Made by a program: the position numbers and the translations under genes. 64,000 nt of DNA from a virus: IMG/VR virus record IMGVR_UViG_3300029171_000001. One strand, 5' to 3'. Under the pieces are notes generated by a model, which saw only the letters and a list, made by a program, of their open reading frames with translations, made no database searches and was not told the origin of the DNA. Numbering within the stretch: the first letter of the stretch is position 1; each line of letters starts with the position of its first letter. Positions 375 through 29,386 of the stretch are shown in pieces.

Positions 375-459
375 AGCAGTGAATGGGGCTCGAACCCACG
401 ACATCCGCCTTGGCAAGGCGGTACTCTACGACTTTTGTCTCCAACTGAGCTATCACTGC
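375..459 (-). tRNA. tRNA-Gly(GCC) with D-loop hairpin insert
   Basis: Full cloverleaf, loop TTGCCAA, U73; D-loop carries GAC-AAAA-GTC. Confidence 0.85.
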
Positions 460-1833: not shown

Positions 1834-1919
1834 TGGAGACGACGGGACTCGAACCCGCATTAGAACTTTCGTCCGTCCTGATTGCAAATCAGGTGCCTAG
1901 CCAATTAGACTACATCCCC
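1834..1919 (-). tRNA. tRNA-Ala(TGC) with extra (variable) arm
   Basis: G3:U70, CCTGA-TTTGCAA-TCAGG, variable region GGAC-GAAA-GTTC. Confidence 0.88.
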
Positions 1920-3225: not shown

Positions 3226-3301
3226 CGGTCCTAGAGGGAGTCGAACCCTCGTTCTGCCCAGATAGACAGTCTGGTTCCCATCCCAGTGGGCTCATAGGAC
3301 C
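3226..3301 (-). tRNA. tRNA-Asp(GTC)
   Basis: CCAGA-CTGTCTA-TCTGG, G73. Confidence 0.9.
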
Positions 3302-3436: not shown

Positions 3437-3521
3437 CGGGAGTGAAGGGACTCGAACCCTCGACCTCTGCCGTGACAGGGCAGCATTCTAGGCTTGCGCC
3501 AACCAACTGAACTACACCCCC
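3437..3521 (-). tRNA. tRNA-Asp(GTC) with D-loop GCAA hairpin
   Basis: CTGCC-CTGTCAC-GGCAG; D-loop GGC-GCAA-GCC. Confidence 0.88.
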
Positions 3522-3696: not shown

Positions 3697-3775
3697 ACAC
3701 TGCAGTGGGATTTTCACCCTCGGTTACATCTCATTCCTAACATGGAATGTATCTTAAAAGTTAGACGACACAGCG
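3697..3775 (-). ncRNA. degenerate tRNA-like RNA
   Basis: Wobble-rich acceptor, D-stem GTCT/AGAT, CATTCC/GGAATG arm with even-sized loop, T-loop TGAAAAT. Confidence 0.4.
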
Positions 3776-3854: not shown

Positions 3855-3949
3855 TCAGGAGTGAGGGAGTCGAACCCTCGGCAAGCAACAACTGAGTGCT
3901 CGCACTGGTTTCCAAGACCAGCCGTTTAGACCAACTCACGCAACTCCTG
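3855..3949 (-). tRNA. tRNA-Pro(TGG) with 8-bp extra arm (95 nt)
   Basis: CAGGAGT/ACTCCTG+A73, CTGGT-CTTGGAA-ACCAG, GCGAGCAC/GTGCTTGC arm. Confidence 0.85.
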
Positions 3950-27550: not shown

Positions 27551-27811
27551 TTATTGATAATTTTTGCGATAAATGCAGACATATTTTACATCATTTTTTA
27601 AATGATCAAAAAAATACTTTTCACATTGTTTAAATGTACCAATTTTCACTAATTCATCAGAAAACATCTCATAATATAAACCATATTTCCCATCTTCTCT
27701 TAAACGAATATAGGCATATCCAGAACCATTACTGTCCTTATTTTTTTTAAAACAATAACTAACCTCATTTAAGATTATACTTTCTTCAATTACAATATCT
27801 TTCTTTTTCAT
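27551..27811 (-). CDS. hypothetical protein
   Basis: 86-aa ORF abutting trpS. Confidence 0.65.
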   Translation of the reverse strand: MKKKDIVIEESIILNEVSYCFKKNKDSNGSGYAYIRLREDGKYGLYYEMFSDELVKIGTFKQCEKYFFDHLKNDVKYVCIYRKNYQ

Positions 27812-28551
27812 TAATTTTTATTACCAAACAACTCCACCATTCTACGAGCAATTGCCTCTTTAAGTTGCAAATTTAATGAAAATTCTTGAATATCCAAACC
27901 CAACTCCCTGGCAATCATCTGTATATTTTTCAAACCTTCTTCATTCATGTTTGCTTTTTTTATCTTTCCCATATAATCTTCATCAAAAAGATATAACACA
28001 TGTTTTTCACCATCTGATTTTGACATTTTCTTCGTAGGGTCAATCAACGACATTACCTTATCCACATGTCCAAACTCATATGTATAATCATCTCTACCAC
28101 CAACACGCTTACAAATATCGTTTGCAAGCTCTATATGAGCAACCTGGTCCCTGCCAACAATAATTATGTCTGGATCATTCATCATAATATCAGCTGCCAT
28201 TAAAACTGGGTATAAAAGCAAACCCATGTCGTACTCAACCTTGTCTTTTTTATCTTTATACTGAGGCATCTTTAACAGTGTAGCAATATTTACCTTGCAG
28301 CAAAGTTTGAAAAAAAGTTCTGTATACAAAGGTGTTTGGTGCACAATTTTTTTGCACCCCAAACGAATAAGCTCTTGTTCGGTTTTATCTGAATAACTAT
28401 CGGTTGTCAAAGAATGATAATTGGCAATCAAAAAAGTAACATCATGACCTTGTTCTTGTAACTCAAGACCTTTTTTAAGACAACCTAGATAGTTACCTAT
28501 GTGAAGTTTGTTAGTCGGTTGAATGCCGATTAATATTTTTTTTGTTTTCAT
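27811..28551 (-). CDS. trpS: tryptophanyl-tRNA synthetase, compact (246 aa)
   Basis: GIQPT..LHIGNY, YPVLMAADI, VG.DQ..H.EL, KKMSKS; start re-set to MKTKK because the ORF-track extension lies in a tRNA. Confidence 0.93.
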   Translation of the reverse strand: MKTKKILIGIQPTNKLHIGNYLGCLKKGLELQEQGHDVTFLIANYHSLTTDSYSDKTEQELIRLGCKKIVHQTPLYTELFFKLCCKVNIATLLKMPQYKDKKDKVEYDMGLLLYPVLMAADIMMNDPDIIIVGRDQVAHIELANDICKRVGGRDDYTYEFGHVDKVMSLIDPTKKMSKSDGEKHVLYLFDEDYMGKIKKANMNEEGLKNIQMIARELGLDIQEFSLNLQLKEAIARRMVELFGNKN

Positions 28552-28553
28552 CG

Positions 28554-28638
28554 CACGTCGAAGAGGATTCGAACCCCTGTGAGACCTAAGTCTGCTGGTT
28601 TTGGAGACCAGTGCTATCAACCACTCTGCCATCGACGT
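28554..28638 (-). tRNA. tRNA-Trp(CCA) with long variable arm
   Basis: CTGGT-CTCCAAA-ACCAG, A1:U72, G73, AGAC-TTAG-GTCT arm; ends 2 nt before the trpS ATG. Confidence 0.88.
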
Positions 28639-28716
28639 ATATAGATGTTTAAAATTACGGATTAGAATTTTTAAAGCCTCGGTCTTGTCGCCGCTTCCTT
28701 AATCTATCACATCTTG

Positions 28717-28789
28717 CACGAGAGACAGGAATCGAACCTGCAACCTTCGGTTTTGGAGACCGCCACTCTACCAGTTGAGCTACTCTCGT
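28717..28789 (-). tRNA. tRNA-Trp(CCA)
   Basis: Canonical, loop CTCCAAA, A1:U72, G73. Confidence 0.93.
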
Positions 28790-28792
28790 GTA

Positions 28793-29386
28793 TTATTTGT
28801 TTTTGCTTTTTAAATATCTTGTTTTTCTACTTGAGTTTTTGTTTTTAGACTTATATGTATCAAGTTGAGAATCACAATTAGGACAAACCAGCCTCAAATT
28901 TATTCTAAAATTATTGTAAGCGTTACCATCTATATGATCGAGAATAAAAACCAATCTAATGTTATTCCACTCGTTTTTTATACCACACACAGCGCATTTA
29001 CAATTCTGTTCTAATAAAATGTGCTTTTTAATAAAGCTCATATTCCTATCATGACAATACTCGTGTTGGTTATTTAAATATTTGGCATATATTTCTTTAG
29101 ATTGATTTTCATAATAACAATCACGACTGCAAAAAGTTTGATCTGGGTGGGTGGTTAACTTTATATTTTTATCACACTCCTTACACTTAATTATTTTAGC
29201 TGTTCCTTTATTAGCTGGAACAAAATTATCTTTAAAATTCGCTCTTTTAGGAAGAATTATACCTAATTTTTTAGCCGCTTTTTTTATAGTTTCATCAGTA
29301 ACTCCATACATTTTACCTATCTTTATATAAGATAGTTTTTTATCAAAAATTAATGTTGACAACTCTTCTTTGTTATAATTTTTCAT
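28793..29386 (-). CDS. HNH endonuclease inside tRNA array 2
   Basis: CAVCG...LDHIDGNAYNN...NLRLVCPNC. Confidence 0.9.
   Translation of the reverse strand: MKNYNKEELSTLIFDKKLSYIKIGKMYGVTDETIKKAAKKLGIILPKRANFKDNFVPANKGTAKIIKCKECDKNIKLTTHPDQTFCSRDCYYENQSKEIYAKYLNNQHEYCHDRNMSFIKKHILLEQNCKCAVCGIKNEWNNIRLVFILDHIDGNAYNNFRINLRLVCPNCDSQLDTYKSKNKNSSRKTRYLKSKNK

Follow-up and report, generated by a model that had tools for sequence, protein, structure and literature searches.

A compact tryptophanyl-tRNA synthetase gene beside a long-armed tRNA-Trp in a phage tRNA array

Introduction

Bacterial tryptophanyl-tRNA synthetases (TrpRSs), such as those of Escherichia coli (TrpS, 334 amino acids (aa)) and Bacillus stearothermophilus (328 aa), are among the closest described counterparts of the enzyme studied here. 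It is encoded by trpS in a 64,000-nt stretch of IMG/VR virus record IMGVR_UViG_3300029171_000001 (hereafter the window) and has only 246 aa. The gene lies 2 nt behind a tRNA-Trp(CCA) gene with a long variable arm, which is itself preceded by a tRNA-Trp(CCA) gene of ordinary length. Our analysis places the short enzyme in a conserved and mostly phage-borne family, and indicates that the locus is probably a translation-support module whose synthetase would serve both tRNAs.

In the E. coli TrpRS-tRNA structure published in 2025 (PMC12135181), Thr225, Asp226, Ser227 and Lys274 read C35 and A36 of the anticodon, the Tyr270 and Gly271 backbone reads C34, and Glu155 together with Gln152 reads the discriminator base G73. 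Tyr100, Arg106 and Arg158 hold the acceptor backbone, and no tRNA contact is described for residues 292-334. Bacterial tRNA-Trp has anticodon CCA and G73 as its major identity elements. The minor ones are A1-U72, G5-C68 and A9 (see PMC12135181).

Phage synthetases that adjoin their tRNAs are already known (PMC7162821). The TrpRS:tRNA-Trp(UCA) pairs of phages AP1 and HF2 (Seki et al. 2025 preprint, PMC12636597) likewise place a phage TrpRS beside a phage tRNA-Trp, and G73 is discussed as a specificity element for them (PMC12636597). Their tRNAs are experimentally tested UGA suppressors in code-change operons of recoded phages, whereas the window offers CCA anticodons, the standard code and genes alone. 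Two further systems bear on the size of the enzyme. The TrpRS Urzyme, an engineered construct of ~130 aa without CP1 or helical domain, shows that TrpRS chemistry is possible without the C-terminal part; the window enzyme differs from it in being natural, in its 246 aa, and in retaining CP1 and a trimmed helical domain. The archaeal-type minimal tyrosyl-tRNA synthetase (TyrRS) of Methanocaldococcus jannaschii (306 aa), likewise small, of class Ic and equipped with a compact helical domain for the anticodon, is the next-best structural match (Z 19-20), although it is Tyr-specific, of archaeal type and only weakly similar in sequence.

Results

The short TrpRS is a conserved family

The core of the locus comprises the following features:

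28717..28789, minus strand: ordinary-length tRNA-Trp(CCA), 73 nt, supported by Rfam (65.4 bits) and its ARAGORN structure; A1-U72, G73, 4-bp anticodon stem.
28639..28716, minus strand: 78-nt spacer separating the two tRNA-Trp genes, from coordinates.
28554..28638, minus strand: long-armed (class II-like) tRNA-Trp(CCA), 85 nt, from ARAGORN and Rfam (49.6 bits, E 1.3e-7).
28552..28553, minus strand: two bases (CG on that strand) that separate G73 of the long tRNA-Trp from the trpS ATG, read directly.
27811..28551, minus strand: trpS, compact bacterial-type TrpRS of 246 aa, from its open reading frame (ORF); ATG at 28551, TAA stop at 27813-27811.

The product matches Pfam tRNA-synt_1b (PF00579; E 3e-39, profile positions 7-245 of 292), and its top PDB matches are bacterial TrpRSs. 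The best NCBIfam match is TIGR00233 (trpS) at 124 bits, compared with 49 bits for tyrS, and spans only profile positions 2-219 of 328. The catalytic motifs HIGN (residues 17-20), GRDQ (133-136) and KMSKS (175-179) are invariant across the short family. The same holds in 14 of 14 short enzymes for two Trp pocket residues of the segment YPVLMAADI, Asp121, which binds the indole N, and Met118 (E. coli Asp135 and Met132). A first-pass annotation of the window, made from the sequence alone, had described a 246-aa TrpRS with only 67 residues beyond KMSKS, and the ORF and motif position agree with it on both counts.

Orthologues in 12 phage loci (2 from GenBank, 10 from IMG/VR) are 237-246 aa long and share the same end point; several of the IMG/VR loci sit on contigs of 480-520 kb. 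The best 120 clusters of a word-indexed search, on contigs of up to 711 kb, show 69-97% identity and nearly all encode 236-264 aa. An exhaustive search of representatives found short relatives over the full length (230-257 aa) with identities as low as 39-47%; beneath them come ordinary TrpRSs of 320-340 aa, which align only to query residues ~4-205. The neighbours of one distant short member are terminase and portal genes, and those of another are small phage-like ORFs. Two short TrpRS-like proteins of 258-260 aa (P0169 and P0195) sit on small contigs with bacterial-looking neighbours, and we therefore do not claim that the short form is exclusive to phages. Judged by sequence, the short TrpRS is a deep, mostly phage-borne family of 230-257 aa. 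Some members carry the database label TrpRS only. A full-text literature search of incomplete coverage, which leaves novelty unproven, found no description of a ~240-aa TrpRS family without the C-terminal helices or of a class II-like phage tRNA-Trp.

An assembly frameshift, raised in the first-pass annotation as what would undo its reading, does not account for the short C-terminus, nor does a recoded stop: the gene ends in TAA, 12 loci and more than 100 clusters share its end point, and the code of the window is the standard one. The miniature enzyme is thus genuine and its short C-terminus a conserved family trait. Separately, one family member (P0003, 81% identity) has 387 aa and adds Pfam PF18143, a fused form of the short TrpRS.

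The enzyme is predicted to keep a trimmed anticodon-reading domain

We built an AlphaFold2 model of the window TrpRS from 30 family members (mean predicted local distance difference test score, pLDDT, 86), which shows three helices beyond KMSKS. By VIA-align, model residues 3-246 superpose on residues 1-285 of the 328 of B. stearothermophilus TrpRS (Z 23.0, root-mean-square deviation 2.6, 243 aligned), and residues 2-246 on residues 2-290 (to ~291) of the 334 of E. coli TrpRS. In sequence and profile searches the final 40 residues gave no alignment to solved TrpRSs, and the C-terminal mapping was obtained instead from the structure superposition and a wider alignment. For this, 14 diverse short and 11 canonical enzymes were aligned with MAFFT. 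Contact positions were mapped on that alignment and by hhalign against a Salmonella TrpS (E. coli numbering).

Across the 14 short enzymes KMSKS, Gln150 and Asp135 are kept without exception. The Glu155 position is E or D in all 14, the Lys274 position K in 13, the Thr225 position T in 11 (Met in the window) and the Asp226 position D or N in 9 (Asn in the window). Ser227 with the next 13 residues, and the Tyr270-Gly271 segment, fall in alignment gaps in the short family, and the Gln152 position is variable. Beyond the Lys274 column there remain 11-25 residues, compared with 55-60 in canonical enzymes.

On this modelling, the short family keeps a trimmed helical domain with the C35 readers and the G73-reading acidic residue, and is predicted to be without the last ~45 residues (the C-terminal helices), the A36 loop and the C34 segment. 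The window TrpRS would thus share with bacterial TrpRSs the fold (Z 23), the HIGH-like, GxDQ and KMSKS motifs, the indole Asp, the G73 Glu, and the C35 Thr/Asp loop and Lys. It is ~85 residues shorter and lacks the equivalents of E. coli ~292-334, ~227-240 (including Ser227) and Tyr270-Gly271, with a further 13-residue trim in its first half. The first-pass annotation had taken the missing part for the anticodon-binding domain. By the model and the alignment that identification is wrong, as the model spans E. coli residues 2-291 and equivalents of Thr225, Asp226, Lys274 and Glu155 are largely retained across the family.

A two-copy model predicts a homodimer through residues 45-117 (CP1), as in bacterial TrpRSs, with an ipSAE of 0.73 (best control 0.01), 100% contact agreement between runs and a partner pLDDT of at least 89. 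Among solved cases, 20 of 30 homo-pairs attain this ipSAE mark, as does 1 of 23 single chains. Since solved TrpRS dimers exist, the model may simply reproduce them, and it shows a likeness to those dimers rather than a proven dimer.

The long-armed tRNA-Trp combines tRNA-Trp marks with a class II-like body

ARAGORN gives the long tRNA-Trp an acceptor stem of 7 bp, anticodon and T-stems of 5 bp each, and a weak D-stem that closes a 9-nt loop. In its 16-nt variable region a 4-bp stem carries a 4-nt loop, and 3 unpaired nt come after it. The D-arm equals that of the window tRNA-Ser(UGA) at 17 of 21 positions. ARAGORN and direct reading thus bear out the Leu/Ser-like D-loop, the 4-bp variable arm and the G73 followed by CG-ATG of the first-pass annotation, and the coordinates (28639-28716) its second tRNA-Trp 78 nt upstream. 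The tRNA fits class II by its variable arm (a stem-loop in a region of at least 10 nt), short D-stem and enlarged D-loop, but its CCA anticodon and Trp-type acceptor stem place it outside the class II amino-acid families (Leu, Ser, Tyr, Sec).

Both window tRNA-Trp share the anticodon loop CUCCAAA, G73 and A1-U72, and neither gene encodes the CCA tail. The long copy has C5-G68 and G9, the ordinary one G5-C68 and A9. The long tRNA is unchanged in a 95%-identical relative (L013/L131), and other long-armed tRNA-Trp genes keep the hairpin with differing stem sequences, so the arm is not a chance fold.

Two described tRNA groups come closest. Its long arm and Ser-like D-arm recall the class II tRNAs (Leu, Ser, Tyr) and the allo-tRNAs described by Mukai et al. 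(2017, PMC5389517), and, as in the latter, its anticodon mismatches the class of the body; the long tRNA-Trp differs from allo-tRNAs in its acceptor/T stems of 7/5 rather than 8/4 or 9/3, and in an acceptor and anticodon that mark Trp, not Ser. The cultured Brevundimonas phage vB_BgoS-Bajun (ON529858) carries an annotated 88-nt tRNA-Trp of the same long-armed design, with the CCA anticodon, G73, class II D-arm, 4-bp variable stem, tetraloop and 3 unpaired 3' nt; it differs in encoding CCA and in starting with G1. Bajun is absent from the phage records that show a TrpRS match, and its tRNA is therefore presumably charged by the host enzyme.

The ordinary window tRNA-Trp is itself deviant, since a G27/A43 mismatch leaves a 4-bp anticodon stem, compared with 5 bp in the long-armed copies. 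A 27:43 mismatch recurs in other ordinary tRNA-Trp genes that adjoin a short trpS: G/A in the window and L013 (2533-2606), A/C in L002 (826-897), U/C in L020 (2856-2927) and C/C in L001 (2242-2313). A tRNA-Trp(CCA) whose anticodon stem has 4 bp reads through UGA in E. coli (PMC13092985, 2026). As a side observation, TGA closes only 4 of the 48 long window ORFs.

Enzyme and long arm occur apart from each other

In 8 of 13 loci trpS has a tRNA-Trp, long-armed or ordinary, no more than 3 kb away, and one further locus has it at 3.5 kb. The two kinds of gene are thus companions in the tRNA arrays of huge phages (9 of 13 loci). The long arm follows the enzyme far less closely. We scanned by pattern five near-complete genomes with the short enzyme (LR756501, LR756502, G001, G002 and G003); the pattern fixes the anticodon loop and T-loop, so deviant long-armed copies could escape it. 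LR756501, LR756502 and G002 showed an ordinary-length tRNA-Trp alone. In G001 a long-armed tRNA-Trp lies 220 kb away from trpS, and in G003/L021, a second lineage, one lies 1.2 kb upstream. The link between trpS and a long-armed tRNA-Trp holds in only three lineages and fails in three near-complete genomes. BLAST of the long tRNA-Trp against LR756501 and LR756502 returned T-arm fragments only, and distant family members have no tRNA within 4 kb of trpS. The tRNA-Trp(CCA) of LR756502 (L001 2242-2313), 0.7 kb upstream of trpS, is 72 nt long with a deviant D-arm and a 5-nt variable loop; it was overlooked by ARAGORN and the Rfam gathering threshold and found by the pattern search alone.

Conversely, a narrow long-arm pattern (fixed anticodon-stem flank and T-loop, 15-30 nt between them) matches at least 120 IMG/VR contigs. 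ARAGORN calls a tRNA-Trp(CCA) in 117 of the 120 listed contigs, giving 82 distinct sequences; with that of L021 added, 65 of 83 fold a 3-8-bp variable hairpin, with differing stems and frequent GNRA-type loops. A tblastn search of the 120 listed loci (1.07 Mb in total) found TrpRS at one only, the window's own relative. The commonest IMG/VR long-arm type (L023) had no match among cultured phages. In prokaryotes, searched as one genome for each of 185,579 species, the same pattern gives 22 matches, mostly on small contigs of metagenome-assembled genomes. A few of these (among loci L151-L172) come from isolates (Pelagibius sp., Collinsella aerofaciens), where they may belong to prophages.

The first-pass annotation had proposed a private pair, in which the shrunken enzyme reads the extra arm instead of the anticodon. 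This finds no support: the enzyme occurs without the long arm, the long arm occurs without the enzyme, and the residues that read C35 and G73 remain. The long variable arm is unlikely to be the enzyme's private handle and looks like one case of a phage-wide addition of hairpins to class I tRNAs.

Extra hairpins on other phage tRNAs

Further hairpin-bearing tRNAs lie in the window and its relatives. The window tRNA-Ala(UGC) (1834-1919, minus strand) has a 4-bp GAAA-capped variable hairpin and keeps G3-U70, and tRNA-Pro(UGG) (3855-3949, minus strand) has a 7-bp variable arm with C1-G72 and A73; each adjoins an ordinary-length isoacceptor. tRNA-Gly(GCC) (375-459, minus strand) and tRNA-Asp(GUC) (3437-3521, minus strand) carry an added 3-bp hairpin in the D-loop, with loops AAAA and GCAA, and are miscalled by ARAGORN as Gly(acc) and Ser(aga). 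Relatives have long-armed tRNA-Lys(UUU/CUU) of 82-93 nt (L001 2402-2488 and 2500-2588; L017, L018, L019 and L020) and a 90-nt tRNA-His(GUG) (L021 2191-2280). None of these hairpin-bearing Pro, Ala, Gly, Asp, Lys and His tRNAs has a matching synthetase nearby. Also in LR756501 (L002 932-1049 and 3985-4095) are two Rfam tRNA matches of 118 and 111 nt, uncalled by ARAGORN, which would contain insertions of ~40 nt if they are genes.

The 2-nt junction is lineage-specific

The G73-CG-ATG junction is identical in the closest relative only (L013/L131). In other relatives trpS is preceded by an ORF, by intergenic DNA or by a tRNA-Lys 16 nt away, and the junction therefore reflects tight packing in tRNA arrays, not a conserved regulatory design. 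A comparable overlap occurs in L015 (~3715-3730), where the TAG stop of trpS lies within the first bases of the next gene, tRNA-Arg(CCU). With the genes abutting, the trpS message would have to be excised from the tRNA precursor, with a 2-nt leader left in this lineage. It is a reasonable inference that the start codon becomes usable only once the tRNA has been removed, on a near-leaderless message.

A probable translation-support module and its alternatives

We put at roughly 60% the probability that this locus is a translation-support module, in which the compact TrpRS charges both phage tRNA-Trp by anticodon and G73 rules and the long arm is not a private handle. The module would form part of a tRNA operon in a huge, Mahaphage-like phage, with two tRNA-Trp(CCA) genes followed by the compact TrpRS gene. 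The enzyme, most likely dimeric on the complex model, would charge both phage tRNAs and probably that of the host as well. It would recognise them through C35 and G73 as bacterial TrpRSs do, perhaps with looser reading at positions 34 and 36, and the benefit to the phage would be a supply of Trp-tRNA maintained during infection.

Several points weigh against this reading. The TIGR00233 score of 124 bits lies below the equivalog cut-off of 176.75 bits. In the window subfamily the Thr-Asp loop has become Met-Asn, Gln152 is replaced by Ala and Arg158 by Asn. The enzyme lacks the parts that in E. coli read A36 and C34, and its recognition could therefore deviate further than supposed here. Lys274 and the C-terminus were placed by means of a predicted structure and a MAFFT alignment instead of a solved complex. 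That the short family charges tRNA-Trp is a prediction from sequence, and the processing step at the 2-nt junction is pure inference.

Some of these points would also suit a TrpRS-derived factor that does not charge tRNA and acts, for example, as a decoy for TrpRS-directed toxins or inhibitors of the host, as a regulator, or as a maker of Trp-AMP only. Such a protein could score under the trpS cut-off, do without the C-terminal helices of the aminoacylation domain and, as in the window subfamily, have lost the acceptor-stem contacts Arg158 and Gln152. We nevertheless consider it unlikely: the catalytic motifs and Trp pocket are invariant over a family diverged to ~40% identity, the tRNA readers Glu155, Thr225 and Lys274 are kept although such a protein would not need them, and the gene recurs among tRNA genes.

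A more speculative idea, for which we see only a small chance, is that the TrpRS gave up its C-terminal helices, along with the loops for checking positions 34 and 36, in order to charge deviant tRNA-Trp (long-armed copies, copies with a 4-bp anticodon stem, and D-arm variants missed by tRNA finders), which the host enzyme may handle poorly. If true, this would give the phage a semi-private route for charging Trp onto decorated tRNAs that are themselves built to evade host nucleases directed at tRNA.

A fully private, orthogonal pair, in which the trimmed enzyme reads the extra arm or class II body rather than the anticodon and host TrpRS cannot charge the tRNA, is improbable. The 2-nt spacing here and in L013, the long-armed tRNA-Trp 1.2 kb upstream of trpS in the G003/L021 lineage, and the deletion of the A36- and C34-reading segments of E. 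coli TrpRS all speak for it, as does the existence of phage TrpRS:tRNA-Trp pairs with proven orthogonality in E. coli (PMC12636597). However, the C35 and G73 readers are retained, and the distribution speaks against it: 3 of 5 near-complete genomes have an ordinary tRNA-Trp only (by pattern scan) and one has the long tRNA 220 kb off, distant members have no tRNA within 4 kb, TrpRS lies near 1 of the 120 listed long-arm loci, and Bajun has the long tRNA and no TrpRS match.

Charging of the long-armed tRNA by seryl-tRNA synthetase (SerRS), or by TyrRS or leucyl-tRNA synthetase, via the arm and G73, with the wrong amino acid inserted at UGG, is very improbable: the D-arm is nearly identical to that of the phage's own tRNA-Ser(UGA) and both the long arm and G73 are reported as features on which SerRS draws (review PMC7609411), but the acceptor A1-U72/C2-G71 is that of the ordinary tRNA-Trp and unlike the window tRNA-Ser genes, the arm has 4 bp and 3 unpaired 3' nt rather than their 5-6 bp and 1-2 nt, the tRNA adjoins trpS, and the design is conserved in many phages, where proteome-wide Trp-to-Ser errors would be harmful.

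In the favoured reading, as a translation-support module, the ~240-aa TrpRS family would rank among the smallest working class I synthetases, and it would show which TrpRS parts evolution treats as dispensable, a question that bears on the Urzyme work. Work on genetic code expansion is mining phage synthetase/tRNA pairs (PMC12636597), and a compact TrpRS, possibly relaxed at positions 34 and 36, is a candidate. The long-armed tRNA-Trp is common on viral contigs and rare in prokaryotes, and we found no paper that describes this distribution.

Genomic context of the locus

Two genes flank the tRNA-Trp and trpS genes:

28793..29386, minus strand: HNH endonuclease gene, matching PHROG HNH endonuclease families (best E 2.5e-19), directly upstream of the tRNA-Trp pair and within the tRNA array.
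27551..27811, minus strand: 86-aa ORF, whose ATG overlaps the trpS stop (TAATG).

Pfam and PHROG searches gave no match for the 86-aa ORF, and the gene downstream of trpS varies between relatives; a split gene that takes its C-terminus from this ORF is ruled out on both grounds.

The nearest database relatives of the TrpRS (69-73% identity) are encoded by the uncultured phage genomes LR756502 (642 kb) and LR756501/3 (735 kb), huge phages of Al-Shayeb et al. 2020 (PMC7162821). When 20 kb of the window were compared with cultured phages by megablast, trpS alone matched, to LR756502. The 48 long window ORFs end in TAA (41), TGA (4) or TAG (3), from which we conclude that the standard code is in use. 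The 20 largest ORFs were tested and included no second synthetase. A scan for sigma-70 promoters and terminators (26.8-31.4 kb) gave fewer promoter-like sites than shuffled sequence, and none on the minus strand from 31370 to 27169; for a probable Bacteroidota-type host such a scan carries no information.

The window holds at least 21 tRNA genes alongside ribonucleotide reductase, helicase and ClpB-like ATPase genes. Three weak Rfam tRNA matches (30-39 bits) uncalled by ARAGORN lie at 467-540, 774-836 and 3226-3301 on the minus strand, and the fold of the first has a UCC(Gly)-like loop.

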